Positions 5,234 to 50,734 are shown, counted from the stretch's first letter. The stretch: DNA of 64,000 nt from Chlamydiota bacterium (GCA_013288075.1 JABDCQ010000002.1:32447-96446), one strand, 5' to 3'. The notes: a model not told the origin generated them from the sequence alone. Program-made: numbers and translations.

Positions 5234-5400
5234 CTTTGTTTCCAGGCTTGTCTCCAATGCACTGGTGCTCAATGATTTACATGCCACTTCATGCTTAACT
5301 TGTAAGTAAATTATTTAAAAATGATATAATATTATTCTTTATTATGTATTAATATATTTGTTTTATAATAGTTAAAAATTAAAACAAAAAGGAGGTAATT

Positions 5401-6033
5401 ATGTCGTCAATGAATGGTGTTGATTATGGAAGTCTTGGGTATGCAAGAAATGGTTGGCAAGATGTAGCGGTTGAAGGGAAAAATGGGGAAATGAAGACGC
5501 TTGGTTATCAGACCTTCCTTGATAAGCATAATAGGGACCAAAAAGTGCGTATGCTTCTGATTGTAGGGATCGTTGTACTGATAGGTGGGCTTGTTCTTGC
5601 TGCTGTAATTTGTGGAACAAAAGCGCATAATTTGCAGCCTCAGATTGATTCATTACACAATCAAATCCCATGGGATATGCCTCGTGGTAATTGGTCTAAT
5701 GAGATCTGGAAGATATTTAATGAGCGAGCAGGTTTAAGAAGTGCAGTATTTGGTTACGGCATGGCAATTGTGGGAACAGGTATTGCAACGGGTCTTTTAG
5801 CTATTCCTGTTATTATGCTATCAGTGAAAATATATAAAGCGAAGAAGGGTAACCTTGAGAAAGACACGCGTCAGATTACAGATATTATTAGTACATGGGG
5901 AGCTTCGCGGCTTTCGTTACAAACACTCATTGCTAAAAACACGCGGGATGAATTTTTTGACAAGTGCGAAAATATCTCTACTCTTAGGATTACAGAAGAA
6001 GAGAAAGCCTTTTTAGAAGCAAACAAACCCTAA
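5401..6033 (+). CDS. Hypothetical membrane protein (two hydrophobic segments)
   Basis: Strong RBS AAAGGAGG 5 nt upstream of the ATG. TM-like segments MLLIVGIVVLIGGLVLAAVICG and AVFGYGMAIVGTGIATGLLAIPVIMLSV. Confidence 0.55.
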   Translation: MSSMNGVDYGSLGYARNGWQDVAVEGKNGEMKTLGYQTFLDKHNRDQKVRMLLIVGIVVLIGGLVLAAVICGTKAHNLQPQIDSLHNQIPWDMPRGNWSNEIWKIFNERAGLRSAVFGYGMAIVGTGIATGLLAIPVIMLSVKIYKAKKGNLEKDTRQITDIISTWGASRLSLQTLIAKNTRDEFFDKCENISTLRITEEEKAFLEANKP

Positions 6034-6346: not shown

Positions 6347-7744
6347 ATGAATAATAAAATCTCTCTTTTTCCCCTTATTCTCCTTATTGTAGCTGCAATT
6401 GACAGCATTCGCACTCTTCCTGTAACGGCATTTTTCGGTAGCTCTCTTGTATTCCTCTATCTCTTGGCCTCTACCATCTTTCTGATTCCCATTGCATTTG
6501 TTTCTGCAGAATTTTCATCGCGCTACCCTAATGAGGGAGGAGTGTTTCACTGGGTGCGTCACGCTTTTGGTGAACGCGCGGGGGTGCTTTCCGTGTGGCT
6601 TCAATGGATTAATACTATGGTTTGGTACCCAACAATGCTTGTTTTTATTGCAGGCACAGCGACTTATCTCATTCATCCTTCTCTTGCATACAATAAACCT
6701 TTTCTATTGTTAGCGTCTTTAATCACCTTTTGGGGACTTACTTTTTTAAATATGAAGGGAATTAAGGTTTCTATTCGAATGAATTCTATTTGCGGAGCAG
6801 TTGGCACTCTATTGCCTATGTCTTTCTTAATTATATTGGGGATGTGCTGGTTTTTTTCATCTAATTCGCCTGCCATTGCCTTTTCTTGGAGAGATATTCT
6901 CCCTTCCTTTAATCTCATAGATAATAGTAGCGCTTTAGTTACTATTATGGCGTCTTTTTTGGGTATGGAGCTGGCGGGAGTGCATGTAGGTGATATTGAG
7001 AATCCACAGAAAAACTTTCCTAAGGCGATTGGCTATTCTGTATTAATTCTTTTGGGGACCTTGATCTTGGGTGCCCTAGCTGTTGCGGTTGTAATTCCTA
7101 AGCAGGACATTCACTTTGTTGATGGGGTCATGCAAACCTTTACAACATTTTTGACGGCCTTTGATATGCCTTATTTAATTCCTGTGCTTGCTCTATTGAT
7201 TGTTATTGGCGCCACCGGAGGATCAGTAAATTGGCTTGTTTCTCCTGCAAAAGGTCTTTTGCAGCTCGCAGAATTTAAATTTCTTCCTCCTTTCTTTTCT
7301 GTTAAAAATAAGCATGGAGTGCCCTTTAGGATTTTGATTTTACAAGCCTTATTAGTATCAACTTTCTGTTGCTTCTTGCAGCTAATACCAAATGTTAATG
7401 CTTTCTACTGGTTTCTAATGTCTCTTAGTACTGGACTCTATATGCTCATGTACATTTTTCTATTTCTTGCAGCCTTGAAACTAAAGAGACCAGAAAAAAG
7501 CTATCAAATTCCCAAGGGAATACGCACGATTTCCTGCTTTGCTGGTCTTTTTGCATGCGCAATAACGATAATTATTGGGCTCCAACCCCCATCTGATATG
7601 GTTATTGCAAGCAAAATAAATTATGCGCTAATGGTTATTGGAGGCTTTAGTATTTTGCTCTTGCCCGCGATGCTTCTTTGTTTCTACCAAAAAAAGCGCA
7701 AATCTTTAGAAGCAATTACGTCTTTATCTGATCCACAGCCATAA
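6347..7744 (+). CDS. APC-superfamily amino-acid transporter, GadC-like (glutamate:GABA antiporter family pattern)
   Basis: About 12 hydrophobic segments. EGGVFHWVRHAFGERAG, GVMQTFTTF and KNKHGVP resemble my recollection of GadC-type antiporters. Confidence 0.75.
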   Translation: MNNKISLFPLILLIVAAIDSIRTLPVTAFFGSSLVFLYLLASTIFLIPIAFVSAEFSSRYPNEGGVFHWVRHAFGERAGVLSVWLQWINTMVWYPTMLVFIAGTATYLIHPSLAYNKPFLLLASLITFWGLTFLNMKGIKVSIRMNSICGAVGTLLPMSFLIILGMCWFFSSNSPAIAFSWRDILPSFNLIDNSSALVTIMASFLGMELAGVHVGDIENPQKNFPKAIGYSVLILLGTLILGALAVAVVIPKQDIHFVDGVMQTFTTFLTAFDMPYLIPVLALLIVIGATGGSVNWLVSPAKGLLQLAEFKFLPPFFSVKNKHGVPFRILILQALLVSTFCCFLQLIPNVNAFYWFLMSLSTGLYMLMYIFLFLAALKLKRPEKSYQIPKGIRTISCFAGLFACAITIIIGLQPPSDMVIASKINYALMVIGGFSILLLPAMLLCFYQKKRKSLEAITSLSDPQP

Positions 7745-7789
7745 AAGACCTCTTCTAAACCTAAAACAAGAGGTCTTCGTAGTGTGTTT

Positions 7790-7939
7790 TTATCTTTTAC
7801 ATTTACATAACTGTACAGGGTAATTGCAGTTTGGACATGTATTTGGACCTCTTTCAGGTTTATCTGAAGGCAGCGAAGCCTCATAAGCAGAAATAGATAA
7901 AAAACAAAGAGCGCTAATTGTTAAAAATGCTTTTTTCAT
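7790..7939 (-). CDS. Candidate small secreted Cys-rich peptide (49 aa), absent from the ORF track
   Basis: My own translation gives MKKAFLTISALCFLSISAYEASLPSDKPERGPNTCPNCNYPVQLCKCKR. AAGAGGTG lies 6 nt upstream of the ATG. The N-terminus is signal-peptide-like and the mature part carries 4 Cys. Confidence 0.35.
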   Translation of the reverse strand: MKKAFLTISALCFLSISAYEASLPSDKPERGPNTCPNCNYPVQLCKCKR

Positions 7940-8119
7940 AGAATTCACCTCTTGGTAATTAGATGGTTTGACTCAAAAGTAAGCTGAACTTATCAGTCAT
8001 CCCTTTGTTCAAATTGCAGGGCAGCCTATTCCATTTTTAAAATTGATGCAAGCTCATTTTCTTCTAATGGATTTTCAAGATTTTAATTACGCAAGATCTC
8101 TTGTTTCAGGACTTCATTC

Positions 8120-8749
8120 TTAATGAAGGCAAAGAGAAGGTGAGGGTTTAGTTAAAATGATATGAGCCCGTTTAGCTTCATATTCGGAGAGCATGTTATG
8201 GACATGTACAAAATGATGAGGGAATCTTTTTGATATTCCCTCATCTACATCATCTAAAATCACAAAACTCTTAATATTATAATTATGCGCGTTTTCTCTT
8301 AGCCAAAAGTCAATTAGTTGCCCTCTTTGTTCTAGAGGAAATCCGTACTTTTGCAGAGATATGGGGGAAAGTTCAACCTCCTTGTGTCTTCTTCGCCAAA
8401 AATCGTGATCTGGAATTTTGTCAATAATCAATTTACCGAATGAGGTTACAGCAAACATGAGGTTTTTTAACTCTAAGGCTGTTCCATCTAATCTCCATTC
8501 GGATATGATAACAATGACAATACGGTATACCTCATTGGTTTTTTCAATAAGATTTTCTAGATTGCTGACGGCATCTTTTGACAAGAAATAGCTTGCTGCA
8601 ATTCTCCATTCAAGCTCGGTAAACCCTCCATTAAGCCCTTCTTTTTTTTCGAACAGCTCATGTACTTTCTCTATAATTTTTCCAGAAAGATAGGGGGAAG
8701 CGCGATCTCCTATTAAAACCCCATCCATATCTAAAAAAATAACCGCCAC
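8120..8749 (-). CDS. HAD-superfamily-like hydrolase
   Basis: The N-terminal IFLDMDGVL is the HAD motif I (DxDGV). The start is non-ATG (GTG) as given in the track. Confidence 0.5.
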   Translation of the reverse strand: MAVIFLDMDGVLIGDRASPYLSGKIIEKVHELFEKKEGLNGGFTELEWRIAASYFLSKDAVSNLENLIEKTNEVYRIVIVIISEWRLDGTALELKNLMFAVTSFGKLIIDKIPDHDFWRRRHKEVELSPISLQKYGFPLEQRGQLIDFWLRENAHNYNIKSFVILDDVDEGISKRFPHHFVHVHNMLSEYEAKRAHIILTKPSPSLCLH

Positions 8750-8929: not shown

Positions 8930-9346
8930 ATGAATGTAAATAAAAATGTGGCTGAATTACTAAAAGCTCTTGAGCGCGCAAAAGGCTTTGTCCCGCAAGA
9001 TTGGGATTATATTGCGAATGATGAAGATGTCATGACCCAAGTGATGGAGCTTGAGTATATGCTAAAGCCTCTTGGTGAGCATCTAGGTGTTAGCAAAGAA
9101 CTATTTCCTTCTTCTACAGAATTAGAAAATGATGAAATCAAAATAATTGTCGAGAAAATTTTAGAGCTATGGGCAGCTTACCATTATTTGGCTGATTTGC
9201 CAGAGGGGCTTCCTGTTCGTATTGCCTATGAAACCTTATTAAGTGTTTGGGATGAAGTTGTTCCTTGCTGCCCTGAAGGAAATTTTCACTTCGATTTTTA
9301 TGAGAGAGACTTGGCCCAATATGTCAACCCCAAACGCGATTATTGA
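8930..9346 (+). CDS. Hypothetical protein
   Basis: 138-aa ORF with no recognisable motif. It is preceded by the promoter-like motif and by GGGGAATTAGATC before the ATG. Confidence 0.5.
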   Translation: MNVNKNVAELLKALERAKGFVPQDWDYIANDEDVMTQVMELEYMLKPLGEHLGVSKELFPSSTELENDEIKIIVEKILELWAAYHYLADLPEGLPVRIAYETLLSVWDEVVPCCPEGNFHFDFYERDLAQYVNPKRDY

Positions 9347-10810: not shown

Positions 10811-10847
10811 TAAAAATGGATGAGGCTTATTGTGTTTATGTAAAACT
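10811..10847 (+). promoter_or_regulatory. Conserved promoter-like motif, copy 2
   Basis: TTCTTGCTTTTAAAAATGGATGAGGCTTATTGTGTTT lies about 20 nt upstream of the ATG at 10867. Confidence 0.35.
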
Positions 10848-10866
10848 TTTAGCCTAAGGATTATAA

Positions 10867-12207
10867 ATGTTCAAATCTTTATTTCTTATTTTCTTTGCAT
10901 TAAGTGGTCTTCTTGAATCAAAAACAATTATGGTAGTGGGAACTCAATTTGGCGATGAGGGGAAAGGTAAATTTACCGATTTACTCAGTCAAAAAGCTGA
11001 TGCTGTAGTTAGAGGTCAAGGGGGCAGTAATGCCGGGCATACAATCCTTGTCAATGATGTTGAGCTTAAACTTCATCTTATTCCTTCAGGAATTATTCAC
11101 GATGGTGTGAAGTGCTACATTGGAGGAGATTGTGTTATTAATCCTCAAAAGTTTTTCGAAGAACTTGAAGATCTTTCTTCCAAAGGAATTTCGTTTGATA
11201 ATCGCCTCTGGATTTCTCCTTTTGCCCATGTTTTGTTGCCTTATCATGTTCTTTTGGATGAACTTGAAGAAGAGCGAAGAGGGGACGACAAAATTGGAAC
11301 GACGGGCCAAGGCATAGGCCCTTGCTACCAAGATAAAGCTTCTAGAAATGGGATTCGTGTTATTGATCTATTAGATGCGGAAAGGTTTAAAAAATTAGTC
11401 AATAGGCGCCTTAATGATATCAATAATCAGCTTGTTAACTTGTATGGAAGATTGCCTCTTGAAAAAGAGCAAATGATCAGCTTATTTCTTGGCTTTGGAG
11501 AAAGGCTAAGGCCTTTTGTGAATAAGGTTGAAGAAATGGTTGAATTGCATACTCAGAAAGGGGATTTTGTGGTTATTGAGGGGGCTCAGGCAAGCCTTTT
11601 AGACAACACTTATGGATTTTACCCAAAAGTCACCTCTTCTTTTACTTCTGCTTCCGGTATTTTGCATGGAACCGGGCTTAGCCCAAGGTCTGTTGGCCAC
11701 ATCTTGGGTGTTGTCAAAGCCTATATGACGATGTGTGGAAATGGGGTTTTCCCGACTGAAACCAAGTGCGAGGAGCAATTTCTCAACAACCAAATTGGCA
11801 GAGAAGTTGGGGTAACAGATGGTAAAAATAGAAGAATTGGGTGGTTTGATGTTCCTTTAACAAGACTCGGAATCCGTCTTGCTGGAGCAGACTCTTTAGC
11901 TTTAACGAAGCTAGATATTTTTGATAGCTTAGATGAGATTAAAGTTTGTACGCATTACCTTGATAAGAAGGGGAATAGATATAGCGATCTTTCTGAATTA
12001 GATTTTTTGCTTAAAGATATTGAGCCTGTATATGTGACATTTCCTGGCTGGAAGCTCGATATTACAAAAGCAAAAACATTTGATGAGCTCCCAGAAGAAG
12101 CTAGGAACTATGTGCGAAGCTTAGAAGTTTACTTAGGAAAGCCCATTTCTTTTGTTTCGGTTGGCCCTGATAGAAATCAAACCATTACTTTAAAAAATAT
12201 CCTATGA
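10867..12207 (+). CDS. purA: Adenylosuccinate synthetase-like protein with a hydrophobic N-terminal extension
   Basis: GTQFGDEGKGK, GGSNAGHT, TTGQGIGPCY and TKLDIFD are PurA motifs. AAGGA lies 6 nt upstream of the ATG at 10867, which adds the leader MFKSLFLIFFALSGLLES. Several otherwise conserved segments are divergent (see findings). Confidence 0.8.
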   Translation: MFKSLFLIFFALSGLLESKTIMVVGTQFGDEGKGKFTDLLSQKADAVVRGQGGSNAGHTILVNDVELKLHLIPSGIIHDGVKCYIGGDCVINPQKFFEELEDLSSKGISFDNRLWISPFAHVLLPYHVLLDELEEERRGDDKIGTTGQGIGPCYQDKASRNGIRVIDLLDAERFKKLVNRRLNDINNQLVNLYGRLPLEKEQMISLFLGFGERLRPFVNKVEEMVELHTQKGDFVVIEGAQASLLDNTYGFYPKVTSSFTSASGILHGTGLSPRSVGHILGVVKAYMTMCGNGVFPTETKCEEQFLNNQIGREVGVTDGKNRRIGWFDVPLTRLGIRLAGADSLALTKLDIFDSLDEIKVCTHYLDKKGNRYSDLSELDFLLKDIEPVYVTFPGWKLDITKAKTFDELPEEARNYVRSLEVYLGKPISFVSVGPDRNQTITLKNIL

Positions 12208-18271: not shown

Positions 18272-18332
18272 GATATTGAATGACGGAGGAATCAATGGCA
18301 TTATTGCATAATCTTAGCACAAGAATACATAG

Positions 18333-18496
18333 AGAGATAAAATTTTCCTCTCCTCTCTTTTTCTTCTCTGTGGTTTCTTTCCTCTGTGGTTTTATCTTTG
18401 GCTAACACTTGAGCTCACAAGAACTTGCATTTTTTTAAACCACAGAGGAAAGAAACCACAGAGAAGAAAAAGAGAGGAGAGATTTTATTCTCTCTG
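18333..18496. repeat. Family-A palindromic intergenic element, copy 3
   Basis: Arms CTTCTCTGTGGTTTCTTTCCTCTGTGGTTT and AAACCACAGAGGAAAGAAACCACAGAGAAG, with the loop ATCTTTGGCTAAC...CTTGCATTTTTTT. Confidence 0.85.
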
Positions 18497-18533
18497 TTAT
18501 TTTTCTTATTACGCAACAACACCGGAATCATCT

Positions 18534-20910: not shown

Positions 20911-21083
20911 AAGTACATGGCCGGACGTGGAAATTAGGGAGTATCTCCTCATTATTTAAGCCAGAGTCAACTTCTTAAGGCTCAAAGAGCCGTAATATTA
21001 CAGCTAGAGGTCGCAGCGTTAGCGGAGGCCTGGGTAGAAGACAAAATCAAAATTGAGCCCTGCAAGGGCATACGCGTAAACCT

Positions 21084-21300
21084 AAAAAGAAAAATAACAG
21101 GAGGACAGATGAAAAAGAATTTTTTTTCTTTCTTCTCTCTGTGTGCTCTGTGATCTCTGTGGTAAAAAATTATCGAGAGAACCTTGCATCTAACGTGTTA
21201 GCATATTTTTTTACCACAGAGATCACAGAGCACACAGAGAGAAGAAAGAACCCTTCTTTTCTTTTATCCTGTCCATCTTAATCCTGTTATTTTTCTTTTC
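21084..21300. repeat. Family-B palindromic intergenic element, copy 1 (core 21128-21250, with extended flanking arms)
   Basis: Core arms CTCTGTGTGCTCTGTGATCTCTGTGGTAAAAAA and TTTTTTTACCACAGAGATCACAGAGCACACAGAG. The outer flanks GAAAAATAACAGGA and TCCTGTTATTTTTC are also complementary. Confidence 0.85.
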
Positions 21301-37492: not shown

Positions 37493-37837
37493 TTATAAAA
37501 ATTGAATTATAGGATCTACAGCCAATACAGCAATCAGAGTCAACCAAGGTACTGACCAGAAAAACAATGTTTTACTGTATTCTTTACACACATAGCTTGA
37601 CCACATAAGATCTATGCTTACAGGCAACGAAAGAGGGATTAATGAGATGGTAAAGATAATTGATAATCCCTTTGGGATTGATAAATGAGGATTATCAAAT
37701 ATCATAGCAGAAAGCAATGCAAAATAAGATAGAAGTGGCAAAAGCAGAACATAAATAATCGTCCAAATTACAGCACAAATCTTGGCTTTCCTTTTACGGT
37801 TTTGAATGGGTTCTGCCTTATTTTGACAGCTAGACAT
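37493..37837 (-). CDS. Small polytopic membrane protein (paralogue of 37148-37480)
   Basis: The ATG at 37837 overlaps the stop of the upstream 506-aa gene (ATGTCTAG). 3-4 hydrophobic segments. Confidence 0.5.
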   Translation of the reverse strand: MSSCQNKAEPIQNRKRKAKICAVIWTIIYVLLLPLLSYFALLSAMIFDNPHLSIPKGLSIIFTISLIPLSLPVSIDLMWSSYVCKEYSKTLFFWSVPWLTLIAVLAVDPIIQFL

Positions 37838-39350
37838 ACAGAAGCTCCTCTTCTTTTTCCTCAATCTTAGCTGCAAGTGAAGGGCGTACTGAAGGACTTC
37901 TATATTTTTCTATAAGCCGCTTAACTTCATTTTGATAGCATTCTCTGCAGAATTGATGCTCAACATAACAGTTTGGATCTGGATCTAATATTGTTATATT
38001 GCTAATTCTTTTCATGATGCTTTCATAGTGACTCATGCGTTGACTCATGAAACTCTCAAACACATGAGCGTCTACGGAATCAAGATAGAGTAATGCATCA
38101 TCCAAGGCCCATCTTTTAATGATGGCTCCTTGGCTTAAACCTTCTTTTATTCCAAGATATCTGTGTACGGCTAAAGATTGAAAATAGGGTGATCCCATAG
38201 ATGAAACTAGGTCGTTTTCGCTAGCAAAATTGTGGGAGTCGGGATGACAGCTATCAACCTCAAGAAATGATCCTCCTCCAAAAGTGAAAATGCGAATTTT
38301 TTGCCTTTCATTAATGTTTAATAGTTTTAAAGCATGCTCAGAAATAATTGCTCCTTGACTATGTGCAAATACGATAACTGGAGGTTGGGAATCTTCTTTG
38401 TTTGATAATGCAAGAAGATATCTTAAAAATTTAGCAGCCCAAGAAACAATAGGAGCATCAATTCCAATTTTTAAAGAAATGCATACTCCAACATCTTTTG
38501 CTCCAAGAATTAGAGAGTCATTTGGTAATGATAAAACCTCTTCTTCATTTGCATAGACAGAAATTAACTCTGCAGACTCTAATGCGCCTTCTCTCGAATT
38601 CAAAATGCCATTAATAAATCCCCAAATGCATTGACCTGATTTTTTCTTGCCAACGGTTCTCACTAGCGTTTCAATTTCTCCTTGAATTGGAGAAATTGCT
38701 TCTTCAGGGATTTGCACATTCCAAATACAGTGGCTAGGCCTGGAGCGTAAATGTTCAGAATCATTTTTGTGACGAACAATTACTGCATCTAGTCGATTCG
38801 TTTTCACCCATTCCATAGCCTCTTTCTTTGATAAGACGAGATCTGTTCCTATCAAGTAGGTGTCTTCCAAATCACCATTTTCTATCTTTGCGGTAATCTT
38901 CGGCAGAACGCATGTTTCTTCATTTCCAATCAATTCATATCCGCATGATTTTTCAATGACTTTTAGTAGTTTTTGAAGTTCTATATCCGTAAAGGATTTG
39001 AGTTTTTTTTCTATAGGCACAGGTATGCAACTACTTAACTTTGCAGCAAAAGCGTCGGTATTTTTGGGATGGTAATGTTCTGCTATTGCCTGGACAGTTG
39101 CATTGTAATACTTTTTGGAATGAAGCCAAGCTGAAAGTGCCTTATGACCTTGCTCTGGATAGGAAAAAATTGCAAAACCGTGACAAGAGCCTATTGAACC
39201 ATTGCTTCTTGCAAAATGACTGTGACTTTTTACTAATCCAGGATTATTTATCCGCCACGATAAATTTCCTCCTCTACGAATATGCTTATTGCCACATTTA
39301 TCAAAGTAGAGGATTGTTTTTTCATCTTGTGGGCATGCTATTCGATACAT
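37830..39350 (-). CDS. Multidomain protein with a C-terminal lipase/esterase-like alpha/beta-hydrolase domain
   Basis: VIVFAHSQGAIISEHA (GxSxG-type AHSQG) follows WGFINGILNS. The N-terminus has WRINNPG...GFAIFSYPEQGHKALSAWL. The middle segment VLSKKEAMEWVKTNRLDAVIVRHKNDSEHLRSRP is reminiscent of DUF3892. Confidence 0.6.
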   Translation of the reverse strand: MYRIACPQDEKTILYFDKCGNKHIRRGGNLSWRINNPGLVKSHSHFARSNGSIGSCHGFAIFSYPEQGHKALSAWLHSKKYYNATVQAIAEHYHPKNTDAFAAKLSSCIPVPIEKKLKSFTDIELQKLLKVIEKSCGYELIGNEETCVLPKITAKIENGDLEDTYLIGTDLVLSKKEAMEWVKTNRLDAVIVRHKNDSEHLRSRPSHCIWNVQIPEEAISPIQGEIETLVRTVGKKKSGQCIWGFINGILNSREGALESAELISVYANEEEVLSLPNDSLILGAKDVGVCISLKIGIDAPIVSWAAKFLRYLLALSNKEDSQPPVIVFAHSQGAIISEHALKLLNINERQKIRIFTFGGGSFLEVDSCHPDSHNFASENDLVSSMGSPYFQSLAVHRYLGIKEGLSQGAIIKRWALDDALLYLDSVDAHVFESFMSQRMSHYESIMKRISNITILDPDPNCYVEHQFCRECYQNEVKRLIEKYRSPSVRPSLAAKIEEKEEELLYV

Positions 39351-42054: not shown

Positions 42055-42213
42055 AAGATAAAATTCTCTCTTTTTCTTCCTCTGTGTGCTCTGTGATCTC
42101 TGTGGTAAAAAAAATGCCAACACGTTAGATGCAATGTTCTGCGATAAATTTTTACCACAGAGATCACAGAGCACACAGAGGAAGAAAAAGAGAGAGGGAG
42201 AGAAACCCTCTCT
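42055..42213. repeat. Family-B palindromic intergenic element, copy 2 (loop inverted relative to copy 1)
   Basis: Arms CTCTGTGTGCTCTGTGATCTCTGTGGTAAAAA and TTTTTACCACAGAGATCACAGAGCACACAGAG. It exactly fills the gap between two convergent genes. Confidence 0.85.
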
Positions 42214-42214
42214 G

Positions 42215-44326
42215 TTAGAGGACAAAGCCTTCGGGGTAGATGGGGCCGTCTTTGCCAATTTTTAGGGTGTTGTTGAAGAACTTGCGGTAGATGTTAAGGG
42301 CTTGCTTAGCATTTTGGACACAGAAAAAGCAATTAGAGACCCACTCTGAGCCTACAATCGTGCCGCTCTCTTGGTTGCACTGGAAAATGGGTGTGATCTT
42401 TTGTTTCCAGTATTCAGGATCGCCAAAGAGAAGGACGGGAGTAGCTGAAACAGAGCCCACTTTCCTTCTGACTTCTTCAAGAGCAAATTCAAAATCGGTT
42501 CCAATGCCTCCTATGAGAAAAATGGGAAAGTCTAGGTTGAATTCAGCTTGTCTTTCGACGAGTCTATCAAGCCGGTAAGTCATTTTGGCATCGATATAGG
42601 GGTTTTGCTTTTGTTCGTTTACAACACTTGTTTTATGTCCTTTAAAGTCGGCGATATTCGCGCAGGAAAGAATATTTAATGAACGCGCTACTTTATTGCC
42701 AAGTTCCATAACGCCTGGGCCGCCGCCTGTTACAAGCGTAATAGGGGTATGTTTATTAAGCAGAAGGTGCGTAACTTCATTTTTGAGCTCTAAGATCCCT
42801 TTCATCAGAGCTAGAAGTTCTTTTTCGAACGTTCCTTCTGTAAGGTTTGAGCCGTAGAGTCCAAAGGTTGTAGCGTTAATAAAGGTTTCTACTTGGGCAA
42901 GAGGCACAAACATGCCGGAATCTTTACCGGGCTTAACAATATATTTCAGAATCTTTTTTGTGGAGGTATCGGCCCAAAAAACAGGGATGCCAAATTTGGA
43001 AAGATCTAGAAGAAAGGATCTGTCTTCATGCGAGAAAAAATCGCCATAAGTATGAGAAGGAAATTGGAAGTAAATCCCTTTAAGGCATTTTTGAACAAGG
43101 GTGCCAAAAAGAATTTTTTTCATAAGAGGTGAAGGGAAGTATCTGCAGAAAAGAACGCCTTGGCTTGTAATAAGGCCCTCTTCCATGCTTTTTAAAAAGG
43201 GATAGGCTGCTTGCTGCTCGATATAGCGCTCTGCAAGAAGGCCTTGGGTTTCTGGGTGGGCAAGACCGGGGAAATCGTAGGGGTGAGGCTCTCTTGTAAT
43301 CCAGTCGCTCGGGGTGAGATTTAGAAACTGCTCTCCTTTAACAATAAAAACAGCGCACGATTTGTGTGAGGGTCCAGGCGCTGTACTAAATGCTTTAAAC
43401 ACATCTTCTGTATTTTCAAGGCAGCTTTGAAGTTGATCTCTATCGGAGAAGTAGATGTACTCTCTATGAGGCTCTAAGGTATAAAATTCTAGGGGAATTC
43501 TTTCGATTTCTTCTCTAGAGGATCCAAAAAATTCGTAAATATTTCCAGATGCTTTTGTTTCAGGGGCCAAAATGGAGGCTGCTGTGTGTTCATAACCTTG
43601 CGGTAGAAGCGAGTGAATGACTTTTCCAAACACTGTACGCACATGTAAAGGCTCTGTACGTACAAGAAGAATCTTTTTTTCCTGAAGTTTTTTTTCTTGG
43701 CCTGGATTCCATTTTTGACTTAGAGGAAGAAGCTCTCTTGTTTTGAATTTTTTATCGTGAAGGGCTTTTTCCAAAATGGGTAAAAATCCAAAAATTTCGT
43801 CCTCATAGGTTACAACGCCTTTTAAAAGAGGCAGAAAAGCTACTACTCTTCCCTCTATCTTTTCTAGGAAAAGTCCTTCTTTTTCAATCATGCCGCCAAA
43901 GGATAATAGAGGAGAGCCTAATCTGTCTGCTCTTCCAAACATACGCAGTAAATAATCCGGGTCTTTGACTTTGCGTCTTGGATCTTGTGCAAAAAGCTTT
44001 CCGATATAGGCGCCTTTTGTTAATAATTCAAGCAGTCTTAGGGCAATGCTTCCATAAGCAATAAGATGAAGTTTTATCTCTGCTGTTTTGTGCACGGGAT
44101 CTAAAAGAGATTCTAGGGAAATAGCATGGAGGCCTATTTGGCCAAGCGTGCTTTTAAGGTCGAAAATCACAAGAGAGGGATCAATCTTAAAGCCGACAAA
44201 TGCGGGAGAAATATTTTCTATAAGAATGCTTATTTCAAGTTTTGCGGGATCGATTTTTTTTATTTGGGTGATTTTCCCATCAGGTGTAACTAAGTCGTAA
44301 TGATCAGAAAAAAGATAGCTTTCCAT
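42215..44326 (-). CDS. Large protein with a C-terminal LOG/TIGR00730-type (PpnN-like) nucleotide-binding domain
   Basis: TGGGPGVMELGNKVA and PIFLIGGIGTDFEFALEE lie in the last ~200 aa. I did not recognise the N-terminal ~480 aa. Confidence 0.6.
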   Translation of the reverse strand: MESYLFSDHYDLVTPDGKITQIKKIDPAKLEISILIENISPAFVGFKIDPSLVIFDLKSTLGQIGLHAISLESLLDPVHKTAEIKLHLIAYGSIALRLLELLTKGAYIGKLFAQDPRRKVKDPDYLLRMFGRADRLGSPLLSFGGMIEKEGLFLEKIEGRVVAFLPLLKGVVTYEDEIFGFLPILEKALHDKKFKTRELLPLSQKWNPGQEKKLQEKKILLVRTEPLHVRTVFGKVIHSLLPQGYEHTAASILAPETKASGNIYEFFGSSREEIERIPLEFYTLEPHREYIYFSDRDQLQSCLENTEDVFKAFSTAPGPSHKSCAVFIVKGEQFLNLTPSDWITREPHPYDFPGLAHPETQGLLAERYIEQQAAYPFLKSMEEGLITSQGVLFCRYFPSPLMKKILFGTLVQKCLKGIYFQFPSHTYGDFFSHEDRSFLLDLSKFGIPVFWADTSTKKILKYIVKPGKDSGMFVPLAQVETFINATTFGLYGSNLTEGTFEKELLALMKGILELKNEVTHLLLNKHTPITLVTGGGPGVMELGNKVARSLNILSCANIADFKGHKTSVVNEQKQNPYIDAKMTYRLDRLVERQAEFNLDFPIFLIGGIGTDFEFALEEVRRKVGSVSATPVLLFGDPEYWKQKITPIFQCNQESGTIVGSEWVSNCFFCVQNAKQALNIYRKFFNNTLKIGKDGPIYPEGFVL

Positions 44327-44398: not shown

Positions 44399-45280
44399 AT
44401 GCATACGCACATTATTCCACGTAGTCTAGGTGTTCATGATGGGACTTTCCATGCAGATGAGGTGAGCGCTGCAGCTCTTCTTTTGCTTTTTAATCTTATT
44501 GATAAAGATAAGATTATCCGCACAAGAGACGGGGAAAAACTTAAGAATTGCGAATATGTTTGCGATGTGGGAGGGATTTATGATCCTGCTTTAAAACGCT
44601 TTGACCATCACCAAGCAGAATATACAGGCGATTTTAGCAGCGCCGGAATGATTCTTAAGTATTTAAAAGACCAAAAAATTCTTGATGAGATCACCTATAA
44701 ATTTTTCAATCATTCGCTGATTTTAGGTGTGGATGCTCATGATAACGGGAGGGTGACATATGATTTAGGCTGGTGCAGCTTTTCTCATGTCATTTCAAAT
44801 TTTGTTCCCATAGCCTACGATGCGACATCCGAGGAGCAGACGGCCTCTTTTTTTCAGGCGCTTGATTTTGTCTTTGGGCATTTAACAAGGCTTCTAGAAA
44901 GGTTTCGCTACATTCAAAGCTGTAAAGAGAAAGTAGCCAAAGCTATGCAGGAAAGGAAACAGTATCTAGTCTTTGAAGAGGCTATTCCTTGGTTAGAAAG
45001 CTTTTTTGAGCTTGGTGGAGAAAAACATCCTGCGCTATTTGTGATTATGCCTGCTGGCGAGCATTTTAAATTAAGGGCTATTCCTCCTAATTTAAAACAA
45101 AGAATGCAGGTGAGAAAGCCTCTTCCTGCTGAATGGGCCGGGCTTCTTGATGAAGAATTAAAAAGAGTAAGTGGTATTTCTGGAGCTGTTTTTTGCCATA
45201 AAGGACGTTTTGTCTCTGTTTGGGAAACAAAAGAAGATGTTATGCAAGCGTTAAAATATGTATTGGGTATAAAGGAATGA
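44399..45280 (+). CDS. MYG1/UPF0160-family metal-dependent hydrolase
   Basis: GTFHADEVSAAALL, DVGGIYDP and FDHHQ. Confidence 0.75.
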   Translation: MHTHIIPRSLGVHDGTFHADEVSAAALLLLFNLIDKDKIIRTRDGEKLKNCEYVCDVGGIYDPALKRFDHHQAEYTGDFSSAGMILKYLKDQKILDEITYKFFNHSLILGVDAHDNGRVTYDLGWCSFSHVISNFVPIAYDATSEEQTASFFQALDFVFGHLTRLLERFRYIQSCKEKVAKAMQERKQYLVFEEAIPWLESFFELGGEKHPALFVIMPAGEHFKLRAIPPNLKQRMQVRKPLPAEWAGLLDEELKRVSGISGAVFCHKGRFVSVWETKEDVMQALKYVLGIKE

Positions 45281-45612
45281 CAACGATTTTTGCAAAGATT
45301 ATAGAAGGGAAGCTTCCTTCAAAAAAAGTTTTTGAAAACGAGCGTATTTTGGCGATCGAAGACATAATGCCTGTCGCTCCTGTGCATATTCTTATTATGC
45401 CTAAAAAAGAAATTGCTAACTTGCAAGCTATGACAAAAGAAGATTATTCCTTGGTTGTAGAAATTATCGAGGTAGCGCAAAAATTGGCAGAAGAATTAGA
45501 TATAACAGATGGATATAGGCTTCTAACTAATAGTGGTGCAGAAGCTGGGCAAACGGTGTTCCACCTTCACTTCCATCTCATCGGAGGCAGAAGACTCACC
45601 CATTTAGCTTAA
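45277..45612 (+). CDS. HIT-family (histidine triad) protein
   Basis: The start MTTIFAKIIEGKLPSKKVFENE overlaps the MYG1 stop (ATGA). The histidine triad is HLHFHLIGG. Confidence 0.8.
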   Translation: MTTIFAKIIEGKLPSKKVFENERILAIEDIMPVAPVHILIMPKKEIANLQAMTKEDYSLVVEIIEVAQKLAEELDITDGYRLLTNSGAEAGQTVFHLHFHLIGGRRLTHLA

Positions 45613-45618
45613 GATCCA

Positions 45619-45924
45619 CTAAGTCTATTTAGGCCTTTATTGACGCAAAGACGCAAAGGCGCAAAGGAAGAAGTCGCAAAGATGAATACAAAAAGGTTTT
45701 TAAGAATGCTTTTGCATTCTTAAAAATCTTTTTGTATTCACTGTTATATTTAAAGGGGAATCAGAGAAATTGCTCAAACATGTTACTTCATAAGAGATTG
45801 TTTTTCTCTGAATTTCCTTAAAACAATAGTTAAACATCTAGGGCCAAAGCCCTAGATGTTTGACCTTTGCGCTTTTCTTCGCGCCTTTGCGCCTTTGCGT
45901 CAATAAAAGCCTAAATAGACTTAG
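45619..45924. repeat. ~306-bp MITE-like element with terminal inverted repeats, copy 1
   Basis: Termini CTAAGTCTATTTAGGCCTTTATTGACGCAAAGACGCAAAGGCGCAAAGG and CCTTTGCGCCTTTGCGTCAATAAAAGCCTAAATAGACTTAG. Internal hairpins TTTTTAAGAATGC..GCATTCTTAAAAA and AAACATCTAGGGCC..GGCCCTAGATGTTT. No ORF. Confidence 0.8.
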
Positions 45925-45946
45925 GTTTTGCATTGAGAGTAACAAG

Positions 45947-47683
45947 GTGTATAAAGTGTTTAAGAGATTTATCATTTCCTTGACTGCGTGTTCTTCCTGT
46001 TTGTTTTCTGAAGATCTTACTTCTAAGATTTATACGCATCTTTTTATTCATGATACGCCGTCCGCTATTCTAGAGGCTAAAAACTTACTTAAAATCCACC
46101 CTGATTCTAAAGAGTTGCAATTTGCTCTTATCCGCGCTCTTTCTGAAAGAGGGGAAGATGTAGAGGCTATAAAAGTTTGGAAGAAAGTATCTAATGAAGA
46201 ATTAGATTCTAAACAAAAGCGGAATCTTTTAGAGATTTTGGGATGGGGCGTTCTTAAAAAGAGTGAGGACTCGTCCTTGCAGTTTGTGCGGTTAACCTCT
46301 CTTATAGGAGCGGCTCTTACACGCGATGCTAAGGCTATTCCTGTGCTTTTAAGGCATTTAAGGGGCACAAATGCCCTATTTCGCGCTGTTGCTGTAAATT
46401 TGGCAGCAAACTATGGAGACGCGCCTTTACAAGAAGAGCTTTTACGTTTGCTTAAAGAAGAAAAGGTTTGGTATGTGCGTTTAGAAGTGATTAAGGCTTC
46501 TGGAAGAGCTCCTTCTGTAGCCGTTAGAGCTGTTCTTAAAGAGATAATAGCTAATCCCAAAACTCTTGCAGAAGAAAAAAGCGCTGCTTTAATTGCCTTA
46601 GTAAGTATGTACGATTCTGTGGATGAAGAAGAGCTTAAAACCCTTGTAAAAAGTAACAGAGCGGGTTTAAGACAGCTTGGTTGCGAAGTTGTTTCTGCTT
46701 TAGAGCTTAAAGATAAGGTAGGCTATGTGATTCCCCTGCTTCAGGATGCAAGCCCGGATGTGAGAATTTCTGCGCTCAGTGTGCTGGCTTTAATGCGCCT
46801 TGATTCTTACAAAGGGAAAAAGGTAACAGCTCTTATAGAAAATAATCTCCATGACACAAATCCGGCAGTCGCCCTAACAGCTGCTTACCTATGTCTTATC
46901 CTTAAGGCTGAAAAAGGGGAGCTGGTTTTTAGAAAGTGGATAGAAGATCCTCGCGAAGAAAATAGACGCCTTGCATCAGGCGCTCTTGCAAAAACAGGCG
47001 TATTTGGAGCAAAGCTTGCTAAAGAATTTCTCCTTAAGGGAAAAGATTCTTATGTGCGGGTGAATTTAGCTCTTGGCCTTATTGGAATAAGAGAGAATGT
47101 AAATGAAGCGTGCGGCGTGCTTTATGCCGCTTTAATTAGCGAAAAAGAGACGAAGTGGATGTGGGAGCATGAACACCATTTTCTTTTCCGCTCTCTTGCT
47201 CCGAGTAAAGTGGGTTTTATAGAGCAAGTTCCTAATTATCCAGCTCTTGTCGATCAGCTTACAAGGCTTGAGCTTCTCTCTCTTTTAAGTGTGATGCGCC
47301 ATCCTAAAGCTCTAGATGCTGTCAAAGACTTTTTAAAGCACACCTCATGGGGGGTATCTGGGGCTGCTGCAGTGACCCTTTTACAAGAGGGTGATGAAAA
47401 TGCGTTTCTTGCAGTGCAAGACCTTCTTGATGACCCCGATGAAAAGCTCCGTATTCAGGCGGCTCTTATTTTGGCCATGATTGGAAGCGATCCTCGCGCT
47501 GTGGGCGTTTTACAAGAAGCCTATACCCATGTGGATAGAGACATGAAAATTCATATTTTAGAGGCTATTGCCCGGATTGGCGCTCCTGAGTCTATTCCCT
47601 TTCTTGTAAATATCTTGGAAGAACCATTTCAGGTATTGCGCGTTGTTGCAGCTTCTGCTTTAATCCAGTGCTTATACCATTAG
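45947..47683 (+). CDS. HEAT-repeat protein, probably a lipoprotein
   Basis: There are many helical repeats with VR..A...L periodicity. The N-terminal KRFIISLTAC is a lipobox (L-T-A-C). The track ATG at 45860 lies inside the repeat element. The GTG at 45947 is my guess and the start is uncertain. Confidence 0.6.
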   Translation: MYKVFKRFIISLTACSSCLFSEDLTSKIYTHLFIHDTPSAILEAKNLLKIHPDSKELQFALIRALSERGEDVEAIKVWKKVSNEELDSKQKRNLLEILGWGVLKKSEDSSLQFVRLTSLIGAALTRDAKAIPVLLRHLRGTNALFRAVAVNLAANYGDAPLQEELLRLLKEEKVWYVRLEVIKASGRAPSVAVRAVLKEIIANPKTLAEEKSAALIALVSMYDSVDEEELKTLVKSNRAGLRQLGCEVVSALELKDKVGYVIPLLQDASPDVRISALSVLALMRLDSYKGKKVTALIENNLHDTNPAVALTAAYLCLILKAEKGELVFRKWIEDPREENRRLASGALAKTGVFGAKLAKEFLLKGKDSYVRVNLALGLIGIRENVNEACGVLYAALISEKETKWMWEHEHHFLFRSLAPSKVGFIEQVPNYPALVDQLTRLELLSLLSVMRHPKALDAVKDFLKHTSWGVSGAAAVTLLQEGDENAFLAVQDLLDDPDEKLRIQAALILAMIGSDPRAVGVLQEAYTHVDRDMKIHILEAIARIGAPESIPFLVNILEEPFQVLRVVAASALIQCLYH

Positions 47684-47692
47684 GAAAATAAA

Positions 47693-48883
47693 ATGGACCT
47701 TTTGAAGAAAATAGAGGGTGTTAAAAAGCATTTAGCCGAAGAGAAAATAGATGGCTGGCTCATTTACGATTTTCAGGGAATGAATCCCCTTGCAAGAGAT
47801 TTTCTTGAGATCTCTTCTGATGCGCATATTACACGCAGATACTTCTATTGGATTCCGAAGGAAGGCAGCCCCATAAAAATTGTCCCTTTTATCGAAAGCC
47901 ATATTTTAGATCATTTGCCAGGAGAGAAAAAAGTTTTTCTAGAATGGGAAGTGTTACATGCTGCTTTAAAAGAAGTCCTTCAAGGGAAAAAAGTTGTTGC
48001 GATGGAGTACTCTTCTAAGTGCGCGCTTCCTTATGTTTCTAAGGTAGATGCCGGAACAATTGATCTTGTAAGAGAGTGCGGAGTCGAAGTTGTAAGTTCA
48101 GCCTCCTTTTTGCAGCACTATAGCTGCGTATGGGATGATTTCATGCTTAAAAGCCACGAGCTTGCGGCTAAAGTTTTAGAAGATGCAGTAGATGCCACCT
48201 GGAGCCATATCGCAGCCTGCTTAAAGGAAAACATCTCCATTACGGAATACGAAGTTAGCCAATTTATTCTTGGGCAGATCCATAAAGCCGGTTGCATCAT
48301 GGACGGCGAGCCTATTTGCGCTTTTAATGAAAATAGCGCAAACCCTCACTATGGCCCTTCAAAAGAAGGCTCAAAAGTTCTTCAGAAAGGGGACCTGATC
48401 TTAATTGATCTTTGGTGTAAGAAAAAGGAAGAGAGAAGTGTCTATGCAGATATCACGCGCATAGCAGTAGCTGGTAAAAAACTTCCCGAAGAAATAGCTA
48501 AGGTATTTAAGATTGTTAGACTTGCCCAGAAAACAGCAACCGATTTCATCCAAGAAAAGTTGGATAAAAAACAAATAGTGAAGGGCTTTGAAGCAGATAG
48601 AGCGTGCAGAAAAGTCATAGAAGACGCCGGCTTTGGCAAATACTTTACCCATAGAACAGGGCATAACATCCACATCAATGCGCACGGCCCAGGAGCGCAT
48701 CTAGATAGCCTAGAAACACTCGATGATCGCCCTCTTATTGCCAAGACATGCTTCTCTATAGAGCCAGGCATTTACTTGCCCGGCAAATTTGGCATAAGAC
48801 TTGAGTACGATGTGTATATTAAAGAAGATGGCAAGCTTGTCATTACAGGCGGCATCCAAGAAGAGGCCGCCACCTTGGCTTAG
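47693..48883 (+). CDS. M24-family metallopeptidase (Xaa-Pro aminopeptidase/dipeptidase-like)
   Basis: DLWCKK...YADITR, HRTGHNIH, SIEPGIY and RLEYDV are the pita-bread-fold metal ligands. Confidence 0.8.
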   Translation: MDLLKKIEGVKKHLAEEKIDGWLIYDFQGMNPLARDFLEISSDAHITRRYFYWIPKEGSPIKIVPFIESHILDHLPGEKKVFLEWEVLHAALKEVLQGKKVVAMEYSSKCALPYVSKVDAGTIDLVRECGVEVVSSASFLQHYSCVWDDFMLKSHELAAKVLEDAVDATWSHIAACLKENISITEYEVSQFILGQIHKAGCIMDGEPICAFNENSANPHYGPSKEGSKVLQKGDLILIDLWCKKKEERSVYADITRIAVAGKKLPEEIAKVFKIVRLAQKTATDFIQEKLDKKQIVKGFEADRACRKVIEDAGFGKYFTHRTGHNIHINAHGPGAHLDSLETLDDRPLIAKTCFSIEPGIYLPGKFGIRLEYDVYIKEDGKLVITGGIQEEAATLA

Positions 48884-49795
48884 TTAGCTAGCAGGTGCAA
48901 TGTGTGTATTGGAAACCATGAGCTTTGCTAGGGCATAAACATCAGAACCTATGCCATCCCACGTCAAATGTCTTCCATTCAAAAATACTATTCCTCTATT
49001 GGCTATATCTTTTTCGACCATTTCATCTTGTAGTTCACTCTTAAGTTGAACTAGGCCGCGCATCTCATTTCTTGTTTTTGGGTCATAATCTTTGAAAGAA
49101 CGTTTGCATATTTCTTCAGGTTTTTGGATTATGCCAGAGTTCTGGAGAATAGTCTGAAAATACGCTGCATTAATTATTGCTTCTACACCTTTATCTTTTA
49201 GTTCTAAAGTTTTTGTACGGTTCTCCGAAACGAATTGTTCGACAGTTTTAGGCTCGAGATCTTTCGGTTCTTGTTTATTTATTTCATCGATTTTGTCTTT
49301 ATGCTCAGAATGGCGGTTAATATAAAACGAGCGGTAAGCTAAACAAGCGATTTGGTTTATTTCATCGATTTTTCGCTCTTCATCGGAAAGCTGATTCCAA
49401 TGGGTAATGTTTTTATTCCCTGCAGGAGCAGAAGGAGAGTGGAATGCTATAAAGTTATTGTAGATTTCTAGGGCGCCTTTTTCGACTTCAGCAATCTCTC
49501 GGTATTTGTTGCGCTCGGCTCCAATCTTTTTGACGAGTTTTGAGCCTCCTACCATGCTTGCAATAAGAGTTGTAGGGACAACAAAGATAAGAAGGTGTGT
49601 TTGTCCAAGAAGGCCAAGGGTGACGTTTATTGCAACAGCAACAGCGATAATCCCAATAATTGCTACAGCATAAAGGATTTTATAACGTGTTTCTTTGGTG
49701 CTTGCTACTTTGTAGCGGCTTTCAATAGTTTCAGTATTAGTCGGATCTAAATAAGTATTTATAGGTTGTTGTGATGTAATTGGATTGCTACTCAT
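48884..49795 (-). CDS. Membrane protein with an Inc-like bilobed hydrophobic domain
   Basis: ILYAVAIIGIIAVAVAINVTLGLLGQTHLLIFVVPTTLIASMVGG is a ~45-residue two-lobed hydrophobic block near the N-terminus. The remainder is hydrophilic. Confidence 0.5.
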   Translation of the reverse strand: MSSNPITSQQPINTYLDPTNTETIESRYKVASTKETRYKILYAVAIIGIIAVAVAINVTLGLLGQTHLLIFVVPTTLIASMVGGSKLVKKIGAERNKYREIAEVEKGALEIYNNFIAFHSPSAPAGNKNITHWNQLSDEERKIDEINQIACLAYRSFYINRHSEHKDKIDEINKQEPKDLEPKTVEQFVSENRTKTLELKDKGVEAIINAAYFQTILQNSGIIQKPEEICKRSFKDYDPKTRNEMRGLVQLKSELQDEMVEKDIANRGIVFLNGRHLTWDGIGSDVYALAKLMVSNTHIAPAS

Positions 49796-49951
49796 AAAAG
49801 CCTCCTAGCTTATATTTTGCCCGGCATTATACATGCAATCGATTAAGAATTAATTAATTTTCACATCAAAATAAAGAATGATGCATTTGATGCATATTCT
49901 AATTTTTCCTTTGCGAGTTTTTATCAGCCTCATAGAGGCGTACGCATTAAC

Positions 49952-50266
49952 CTAACTCTATTGTGGCCTTTATTGACGCAAAGGCGCAAAGGCGCGAAGA
50001 AAGCGCAAAGGTAAAACAGCTAGGGCTTTGGCCCTAGCTGTTTTACTATTGTTTTAAGGAAATTCAGAGGGGAGCAATCTCTAGTGAGGTAACATGTGAT
50101 GATAATTTCTTTGATCCCCTTTAAATACAATAGTGAACACAAAGAATGAAGATTTTTAAGAATGTAAAACATTCTTAAAAATCTTCATTCTTTGTGTTCA
50201 CCTTTGCGACTTCTTCCTTTGCTCCTTTGCGTCTTTGCGTCAATAAAAGCTACGATAGATGAAGAA
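49952..50266. repeat. ~306-bp MITE-like TIR element, copy 2 (inverted relative to copy 1)
   Basis: It has the same termini (GGCCTTTATTGACGCAAAGGCGCAAAGG ... CCTTTGCGTCTTTGCGTCAATAAAAGC) and internal hairpins, arranged as the reverse complement of 45619-45924. Confidence 0.8.
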
Positions 50267-50275
50267 AAAGAGGTC

Positions 50276-50734
50276 TTAGGGTGAGGGGTGAGAGGAGGCG
50301 ACGAGGTGTTTAAGGGCTTCTTGCTTCATGCGGAGGTACATGGAGGAGAGGCCGTTGGAGCGGCCGGGGGTGAGAGAGGCATGGATGCCAAGGTCTTGCA
50401 GATAAGTTGCAGGAACCTTCAGGATAGCCTCTGGGGACTCTTCGTTATAGACGTATAGCAAAAGAGCTGCGAGGCCAGCCGAAATAAGGGCCTCAGAGCA
50501 CGCTGTGAACGTGATTTTGCCATTTTCTATAGAGCTATGCAAGTACATGGTGCTTTGGCATCCTTGCACAATATTTCCTTCTACCTTATAGGCAGGATCA
50601 AAAGGGGCTAAAGCTTTGCCAAGCTCGATGATTTTTTGATATCTGGCATCTGGCGAAGTGCAAGCTAAAAAAAGAATTTTTAATTCCTCTTGTTTTTGCA
50701 AGCAGGAGGTAAATAATGTGTCCATAGGCTCCAA
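50276..50734 (-). CDS. sufE: SufE-like sulfur-acceptor protein
   Basis: About 150 aa. RYQKIIELGKALAPF and VQGCQSTMYLH carry the conserved Cys motif of the SufE/CsdE family. Confidence 0.65.
   Translation of the reverse strand: MEPMDTLFTSCLQKQEELKILFLACTSPDARYQKIIELGKALAPFDPAYKVEGNIVQGCQSTMYLHSSIENGKITFTACSEALISAGLAALLLYVYNEESPEAILKVPATYLQDLGIHASLTPGRSNGLSSMYLRMKQEALKHLVASSHPSP

Follow-up and report, generated by a model that had tools for sequence, protein, structure and literature searches.

Inverted repeats around a chlamydial HEAT-M24 gene block as probable old insertions of an IS231-type miniature element

When two inverted copies of a short repeat bracket a block of genes, do they delimit a mobile cassette, form a switch that flips the block, or mark separate insertions into genes that were already in place? 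The question is raised by a 64,000-nt stretch of DNA from a Chlamydiota bacterium (GCA_013288075.1 JABDCQ010000002.1:32447-96446), referred to here as the window, in which all coordinates are given unless a contig is named. A reading made from the sequence alone (the sequence-only reading) had placed two repeats at 45619-45924 and 49952-50266, on either side of a 4-kb segment encoding a HEAT-repeat lipoprotein, an M24 peptidase and an Inc-like membrane protein, and had offered recombinational inversion or a composite mobile unit as explanations. The comparisons described below point elsewhere: with a probability of about 0.72, the repeats are old, independently inserted copies of a miniature inverted-repeat transposable element (MITE) of the insertion sequence (IS) IS4/IS231 type, mobilised in trans.

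Element copies, empty sites and termini

Both repeats were located where the sequence-only reading had put them, and they are reverse complements of each other, with 84% identity over 319 core columns (88% ungapped) and with 34, 25 and 24 bp as the longest perfectly identical tracts. Wider limits of ~45611-45930 and 49939-50263 follow from homology with a third copy, described below. The features of the two copies are as follows.

45611..45930, + strand: copy 1, ~320 bp, occupying almost all of the HIT-HEAT intergenic space; both outer ends decayed
45601..45610, + strand: tentative left target-site duplication of copy 1, CATTTAGCTT, spanning the final codons of HIT up to the T of its stop
45931..45940, + strand: tentative right target-site duplication of copy 1, CATTGAGAGT
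45619..45669, + strand: left inverted-repeat arm of copy 1, with TTGAC and three GCAAAGRC octamers at 45640-45667
45874..45924, + strand: right inverted-repeat arm of copy 1, octamer arm 45884-45903
45683..45740, + strand: hairpin 1 of copy 1, AT-rich, 27-bp stem; matching insertions in both arms of copies 2 and 3
45749..45823, + strand: hairpin 2 of copy 1, imperfect middle stem-loop
45824..45869, - strand: hairpin 3 of copy 1, GC-rich stem with four covarying pairs among the three copies
49939..50263, - strand: copy 2, ~325 bp, reverse-complementary to copy 1; bounded by the sufE stop codon on one side and by the sequence upstream of the Inc-like gene on the other
49939..49959, + strand: outer terminus of copy 2, CGTACGCATTAACCTAACTCT, IS231-like
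49957..50003, + strand: inverted-repeat arm of copy 2, octamer arm 49973-49992
50213..50259, + strand: inverted-repeat arm of copy 2, octamer arm 50224-50243; outer 13-15 nt beyond the arm missing
50128..50206, - strand: hairpin 1 of copy 2, 38-bp stem
50006..50051, + strand: hairpin 3 of copy 2, terminator-like when read from the + strand, against the direction of sufE and the Inc-like gene

The terminal inverted repeats, estimated earlier at ~45 nt, span 51 nt in copy 1 (92% complementary) and 47 nt in copy 2 (85%), and all four occurrences of the motif TTATTGACGCAAAGRCGCAAAGG in the window fall in these four arms, shuffled sequence being expected to contain none. Three internal hairpins were found instead of the two first described, namely an AT-rich stem of 27-38 bp, a GC-rich stem of 14-17 bp and, between them, an imperfect one, so that each copy is predicted to fold into a long arm-arm stem carrying three hairpins (-167 and -159 kcal/mol, z-scores -18 and -22, for copies 1 and 2, respectively). 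Open frames in these two copies do not exceed 50 amino acids (the bound in the test of MITE coding capacity was ≤59), which upholds the earlier statement that the element lacks an open reading frame (ORF). The spacing of 7-10 nt first given for the upstream stop codons is corrected to 6 nt after HIT and 9-16 nt after sufE.

Related genomes were compared with the window through contigs L005 (a JGI metagenome), L007 (a Logan assembly) and L009 (a Rhabdochlamydiaceae genome). Both L005 and L007 carry MYG1-HIT-HEAT-M24-(unnamed gene, minus)-sufE(minus)-infA-tuf-secE-nusG in the order and orientation of the window, and both sites are empty in them, with the flanking genes conserved: HIT and HEAT are 9 nt apart in L005 and -4 nt apart in L007, the unnamed gene, which takes the position of the Inc-like gene, lies 63 and 26 nt from sufE, respectively, and the arm motif was not found in either locus. 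These two relatives are distant (~61% identity in the M24 protein), and the exact breakpoints are not alignable. The combination of empty sites and identical gene order implies that the elements are insertions and that the 4-kb block was inherited vertically in its ancestral orientation; L009 retains HIT-HEAT-M24 as well. On this evidence the repeats are very probably MITE insertions into an ancestral gene block.

The third copy came from a metagenome scan and lies at 7698-8032 (335 bp) of contig Ga0207127_10283 (L043; 11 kb, 39% G+C), in an unrelated gene context and with 83-85% identity to the window copies. The protein adjoining it is identically encoded in run SRR8433449, which also holds the window genes, so L043 very probably belongs to the genome of the window; the window and L043 together thus yield three copies in ~75 kb of sequence from one sample. 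The L043 copy is the best preserved of the three. Its arms pair over 76 nt; its first bases are CATGGGCATAAACCTAAGGCT and its last are the complement of CATTCGCGTAACCTTAAGTCT. The 10 bp on either side of it, at 7688-7697 and 8033-8042, form a perfect direct repeat, CATCTAGAGG; as an inverted repeat they would agree at just 8 of 10 positions, and the direct reading is preferred for this reason. The proposed MITE-like nature is supported by inverted termini, small size (320-335 bp, the usual limit being ~600 bp), absence of coding capacity, empty sites in relatives and a third copy in another gene context, there with a candidate 10-bp duplication.

According to De Palmenaer et al. 2008 (Table 1; PMC2266710), members of the IS231 subgroup of the IS4 family have ends of the form 'CAT-------AA--TAA---' beside 10-12-bp direct repeats; at its left end, the L043 copy shows exactly this end signature. 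IS231F served as the reference, being present in two copies in plasmid pBtoxis with repeats CATGCCCATCAACTTAAGGAT/…AAT and an 11-bp duplication. Its terminal 21-mer is matched at 16/21 positions by the left and at 14/21 by the right end of the L043 copy, while of the ~128,000 21-mers in the window none reaches 16 matches and 16 reach 14. The end of copy 2 at 49939 (CGTACGCATTAACCTAACTCT) matches at 13/21, with AA at positions 11-12 and TAA at 15-17, its terminal CAT being mutated to CGT, and both ends of copy 1 are decayed to 6-8/21, the right one by a 7-nt deletion (CA·······AAACCTAAG) and the left one by falling ~5 nt short. Judged by these matches, the element ends are probably of the IS231 type, and the window copies are probably immobile, each having lost or mutated at least one terminus.

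In silico excision of 45611-45940 restores …ACC CAT TTA GCT TAA CAAGGTGTATAAA GTG, that is, the HIT stop TAA, a 13-nt spacer with an AAGGTG ribosome-binding site and the HEAT GTG; this reconstructed compact junction would resemble those of the relatives. A cognate DDE transposase with the YREK motif was looked for in the window and in the fetched loci; no transposase, IS231-like or other, was detected there by tblastn with the IS231F transposase or by Pfam. Comparison of the element with plasmids and phages (blastn) gave no match, viral contigs matched neither the element core nor the arm motif, and six-frame peptides of the three copies matched nothing in a protein collection at E ≤ 0.01, indicating that gene callers do not call frames in the element.

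We infer the following history. A DDE transposase encoded elsewhere, presumably IS231-like and acting in trans, would bind the ~20-bp terminal repeats (CAT…AA..TAA), excise the element and insert it with duplication of ~10 bp of target. One copy would have entered the tight HIT-HEAT junction of a MYG1-HIT-HEAT-M24 operon and the other the position just after sufE, and each would later have lost or mutated at least one terminus. With the terminator-like hairpin antisense, the present orientation would permit operon read-through, and the read-through transcript would bear a ~60-bp duplex and hairpins that RNase III could possibly cleave; both the read-through and the RNA processing at the element are expectations from the predicted structure.

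Several points weigh against this history. The IS231 assignment draws chiefly on one copy, because the outer ends in the window are decayed and the candidate duplications there are weak: CATTTAGCTT and CATTGAGAGT agree at 7/10 positions around copy 1, and CTCATAGAGG and GAAAAAGAGG at 6/10 around copy 2. The 10-bp repeat in L043 is near-palindromic (TCTAGA core) and could partly belong to the inverted repeat, and no IS231-like transposase was found in the ~75 kb of genome read. Moreover, the internal hairpins have stayed paired through 10 compensatory changes among three copies, for which a passive MITE has no obvious need; the bias in orientation rests on n = 3; and the octamer arms are common to elements with other end types, which IS231-type transposition leaves unexplained.

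Internal pairing, octamer arms and rival explanations

The pairing and the orientation of the copies bear on the possibility that they have been domesticated and persist because the folded RNA or DNA is of use, for instance as an RNase III site that uncouples messages, as a block to antisense transcription or as a protein-binding palindrome. In the consensus structure of the three copies, 96% of cells are paired, and pairs changed on both sides number 10, compared with 4.0 ± 1.6 in shuffles (0/500 reach 10) and 0-1 when the partners are slid; four of these ten fall in hairpin 3. Insertions and deletions in hairpin 1 are matched in both arms, and the folding z-scores of -18 to -22 favour the same view. 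All three copies stand directly after the stop codon of a same-strand gene and upstream of another same-strand gene, and all share one orientation relative to the flanking genes, in line with transcription, with the GC-rich hairpin and its T-run antisense; hairpin 3 of copy 1 resembles an intrinsic terminator solely on the strand antisense to HIT and HEAT. This suggests, on n = 3, that insertions of the opposite orientation would terminate operon transcription and be lost.

A strand-specific functional RNA was dropped as a candidate, because sense and antisense fold energies are similar and mismatches of the G-U type (20) balance those of the A-C type (23). The symmetry of the pairing looks like a DNA-level or double-strand property rather than that of one functional RNA strand. 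Furthermore, no Rfam family reached its gathering score on the element (only tRNAs pass, and sub-threshold matches are to generic long hairpins), just three copies are available, and the relatives do well without the element at both sites. Domestication is accordingly an unlikely account of why the copies persist.

The second rival concerns the arms. Their motif is TTGAC(GCAAAGRC)2-4. More than 118 metagenome contigs contain the 20-mer TTGACGCAAAGRCGCAAAGG, against an estimated ~4 expected by chance; only exact matches were collected, and arm conservation is overstated to that extent. A 23-mer of the motif recurs in one Nostoc and two Chloroflexota genomes in a scan of a genome collection. Among the matches listed, the contigs range from 39 to 69% G+C, 65 of the 118 have an inverted partner within 620 nt, the elements measure 53-578 nt (median 132) with 2-4 octamers per arm, and the 55 interiors that could be compared form 46 clusters. 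Since the partner arms were not selected for and the contexts are widely spread, the octamer-arm class is taken to be real, and the chlamydial element looks like a member of it whose octamer arms are enclosed by IS231-type termini.

Members of this class differ in their ends. The shortest are bare hairpins with neither outer repeats nor a duplication, and two further subfamilies are bounded by TA on either side, as judged by eye on few copies. A CAGTAG… subfamily of 130-133 bp shows 5-bp duplications (AGATT, AGTCT, AATCT, AGACT) in six of eight complete copies and is thereby similar, in its CAGT termini and its duplications, to the ISH3 family with its CRGT ends and 4-5-bp duplication (PMC2266710, Table 1). 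In contrast to the chlamydial element, it resides in contigs of ~50% G+C, and the two are unrelated outside the arms.

It is possible, with the odds leaning against it, that the arm is a conserved palindromic module shared by Chlamydiota, Cyanobacteriota, Chloroflexota and soil bacteria of 39-69% G+C, occurring as a bare hairpin and also within MITEs that have at least three kinds of terminus (IS231-like with a 10-bp duplication, CAGT with a 5-bp duplication, and TA-flanked). If so, the conserved part would be this module and not the transposon end, and it might be the binding site or structure of a widespread host or mobile-element factor, or an undescribed hitch-hiker on unrelated MITEs that resembles repetitive extragenic palindromic (REP) sequences. 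The rival explanation holds that the palindrome TTGAC(GCAAAGRC)n…(GYCTTTGC)nGTCAA is such a REP-like module that spreads, or is selected, alone, the IS231-type ends being only its carrier in this genome. The number of contigs with the 20-mer and its presence in Nostoc and Chloroflexota, the varied lengths, G+C contents and interiors, the bare hairpins, the several end types (CAGT with 5 bp; TA) and the sites with tail-to-tail arms all speak in its favour. However, no protein recurs beside the motif among the 118 contigs listed and nothing shows autonomous movement; the exact-match collection makes the arms appear more conserved than they are, and the end types of the other subfamilies were read by eye from few copies. 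We therefore hold this explanation, too, to be improbable.

No transposase lies between the far-apart arms of a pair in L062 (>2 kb, the only such pair) or of a 0.9-kb pair in L125, no RAYT-like gene is associated with the octamer arms, and no Rfam family matches the 20 octamer-arm loci searched. A literature search for the motif strings returned unrelated primer matches only, with no paper found that describes octamer-arm elements, and a 32-nt arm query matched partial single arms on cyanobacterial plasmids and, weakly, coding regions in Vibrio and Photobacterium.

Two further arrangements were observed in passing. Tail-to-tail arms occur in L040 (~5862-5914), L075 (~8185-8237), L125 (~10834-10887) and L062 (60-111, 554-596 and 2786-2837), in the layout …CCTTTGCGTCTTTGCGTCAA, ~13 nt (3 nt at one L062 site), TTGACGCAAAGACGCAAAGG…, with the TTGAC end toward the loop; in L125, a glycosyltransferase gene is bracketed by two such sites. 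A palindromic element (GGTAACTACTMAG…CTKAGTAGTTAC) is inserted in the middle of a CAGTAG… member in L105 (~451-684), L107 (~9065-9249) and L120 (~2038), a nesting of one MITE in another; these contigs have ~50% G+C and appear to be cyanobacterial.

Another rival is an invertible segment: recombination between the inverted copies would turn the 4-kb block around, either as a switch or as a rearrangement that recurs. Inversion as such had been suggested by the sequence-only reading. Repeats of ~320 bp with identical tracts of 34, 25 and 24 bp could in principle allow RecA-dependent exchange, and occasional homologous exchange between the copies is possible, though at an overall identity of just ~88% and with tracts this short it would be inefficient. 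The orientation in the window is the ancestral one, no recombinase domain or gene is present among the neighbouring genes, and a flip would separate HEAT and M24 from the HIT operon and set them head-on with sufE. The only other assembly available for the organism, made from short reads (Logan SRR8433449, L004), is interrupted within the repeats and uninformative on orientation. Inversion is thus very unlikely, although a minority of inverted genomes may exist in the population. The composite transposon, in which the two copies would move the HEAT, M24 and Inc-like genes as one unit, has in its favour only that inverted copies of one element bracket these genes, and is scarcely credible given that the three lie between HIT and sufE in identical order and orientation in the element-free relatives, that L009 also keeps HIT-HEAT-M24, that the G+C content of the segment is like its surroundings, that the outer flanks of the pair (CATTTAGCTT and GAAAAAGAGG) show no duplication and that both copies have damaged termini.

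Neighbouring genes and a second repeat family

The genes around the two MITE copies are listed below.

44399-45280, + strand: MYG1
45277..45612, + strand: HIT-family gene, upstream of copy 1
45956..47683, + strand: HEAT-repeat lipoprotein gene, start GTG 45956, lipobox LTAC
47693..48883, + strand: M24 peptidase gene
48884..49795, - strand: gene for an Inc-like 303-aa protein with a bilobed hydrophobic domain at residues ~38-86
50276..50734, - strand: sufE, upstream of copy 2 in the direction of transcription
from 51175, + strand: tRNA-Thr, then tuf

The sequence-only reading had let the HEAT gene begin inside copy 1 and suggested that the element might supply its promoter or 5' end. The longest ORF does start within the copy (TTG 45860), but this is a mechanical extension. 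The real start, GTG 45956, lies outside the core repeat, follows the AAGGTG ribosome-binding site, matches the N-termini of the orthologues and opens the lipoprotein signal MFKRFIISLTAC; the orthologues likewise have a signal peptide at the N-terminus and begin right after HIT. No sigma-70-like promoter is predicted on the + strand within copy 1, and a promoter role is not supported. The C-terminus of HIT (…GGRRLTHLA) is conserved in the relatives, indicating that the insertion left the protein unchanged, and the sufE tail is variable in all relatives and uninformative on any effect of the insertion. The Inc-like protein had no match in a Pfam search. The best homologues of the M24 protein are only ~61% identical, the named ones coming from Rhabdochlamydiaceae and Chlamydiota assemblies, and the window also encodes a DUF818 'Chlamydia CHLPS' protein; together these point to an uncultured chlamydia without close sequenced relatives.

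Some features of the wider region stand apart from the elements. The spacing between sufE and the Inc-like gene (49796-49938), minus copy 2, is still ~155 nt, compared with 26-63 nt in the relatives; it includes an AT-rich stretch with short repeats (TGCATTTGATGCAT) and could represent either the Inc-like gene's promoter region or residual element sequence. Three large ORFs have no Pfam match, at 42215-44326 (- strand, 703 aa), 37830-39350 (- strand, 506 aa) and 1168-2190 (- strand, 340 aa), and L007 has a 715-aa ORF, also without a Pfam match, that is placed like the 703-aa ORF, between DUF1207 and MYG1. A gene for a YhcG/DUF1016 PD-(D/E)XK nuclease lies at 2361-3629 (- strand) of the window, and a homologous YhcG/DUF1016 architecture is found at 3298-4380 (- strand) of L005, beside a phage-type integrase and just upstream of the DUF1207-MYG1-HIT block. 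MYG1 of L009 (7048-7908) is split by gene calling into pieces of 123 and 110 aa, and the C-terminus of its HIT protein diverges from position ~92, which suggests frameshifts or gene decay at that locus.

A second palindromic family, unrelated to the GCAAAGG element, was also observed. Its copies are ~150-220 bp long, with arms of tandem CCTCTGTGGTT(T)CTT motifs; five are in the window (~954-1143, 5042-5241, 18304-18508, 21069-21290 and 42058-42204) and four on the 11-kb contig L043 (243-414, 2446-2639, 3698-3894 and 5336-5517). The copy at 18304-18508 has GGAATCA on both flanks. Two termini of the family are near-identical to those of the GCAAAGG element, at 21069 (CATACGCGTAAACCTAA) and, on the other strand, at ~1140 (CTACGCGTAACTCTAAG). 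That the family generally carries IS231-like ends is no more than a lead, with only 2 of 18 ends matching clearly. It may be mobilised by the same transposase as the GCAAAGG element.

Meaning and comparison with known systems

Under the IS231-type MITE interpretation, the bracketed genes are ordinary and vertically inherited, the repeats are fossil insertions at an operon junction and in a 3' region, and the locus is neither a cassette nor a switch. Expansions of IS have been described in chlamydiae, in a paper that makes no mention of MITEs (PMC9723776), and the present element is at least a little-documented case of MITEs in this group; two or more MITE-like families seem to be present in this genome, and at high density. 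The occurrence of IS231-type ends so distant from the Bacillus group suggests that this transposase lineage has a broader reach, and a very stable 330-nt palindrome in the middle of an operon offers a test case for the tolerance or use of such inserts in intracellular bacteria, through RNase III or antisense termination. Two residues are left unexplained, namely the compensatory upkeep of the internal hairpins and the cross-phylum octamer arm. The octamer-arm class, if true, would form a new family of palindromic repeats in bacteria, one that is simple to search for and has a conserved portion for which no single transposase accounts.

In its architecture the element is similar to the Correia elements (CREE) of Neisseria, which are likewise small intergenic MITEs with inverted ends. 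Correia elements are co-transcribed with their neighbours, and their long hairpins are RNase III substrates that can alter downstream expression; they measure 100-155 bp, duplicate TA and contain promoter elements and an IHF site. Unlike them, the chlamydial element is ~320-335 bp long, has an apparent duplication of ~10 bp and contains no predicted promoter.

As short extragenic palindromes often just 3' of genes and present in several phyla, the octamer-arm elements also recall REP sequences, bacterial interspersed mosaic elements (BIMEs) and the GTAG- and CGTC-tagged repeats (Di Nocera et al. 2013, PMC3733652), and their arms end in GACG/CGTC as in the CGTC-tagged group. However, CGTC repeats have stems of 8-9 bp, loops of 4-5 nt and an unpaired tag (PMC3733652), and membership of that family is excluded by architecture, the arms here being tandem octamers of 20-50 nt.

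MIC231 cassettes and other IS231-derived MITEs of the Bacillus cereus group provide the remaining comparison. The chlamydial element differs from MIC231 in its host, which belongs to the Chlamydiota and not the Bacillota, in carrying no passenger gene and in that its cognate transposase was not seen, and from IS231F in its interior, a four-way junction of palindromes with octamer-repeat arms. It shares with them termini that resemble the IS231 inverted repeat (CATGCCCATCAACTTAAG; 16/21 and 14/21 in the L043 copy), and the end signature; the near-palindromic 10-bp direct repeat of that copy may be a further likeness, and, as in MIC231, the element holds no transposase gene, so that mobilisation in trans would be needed.

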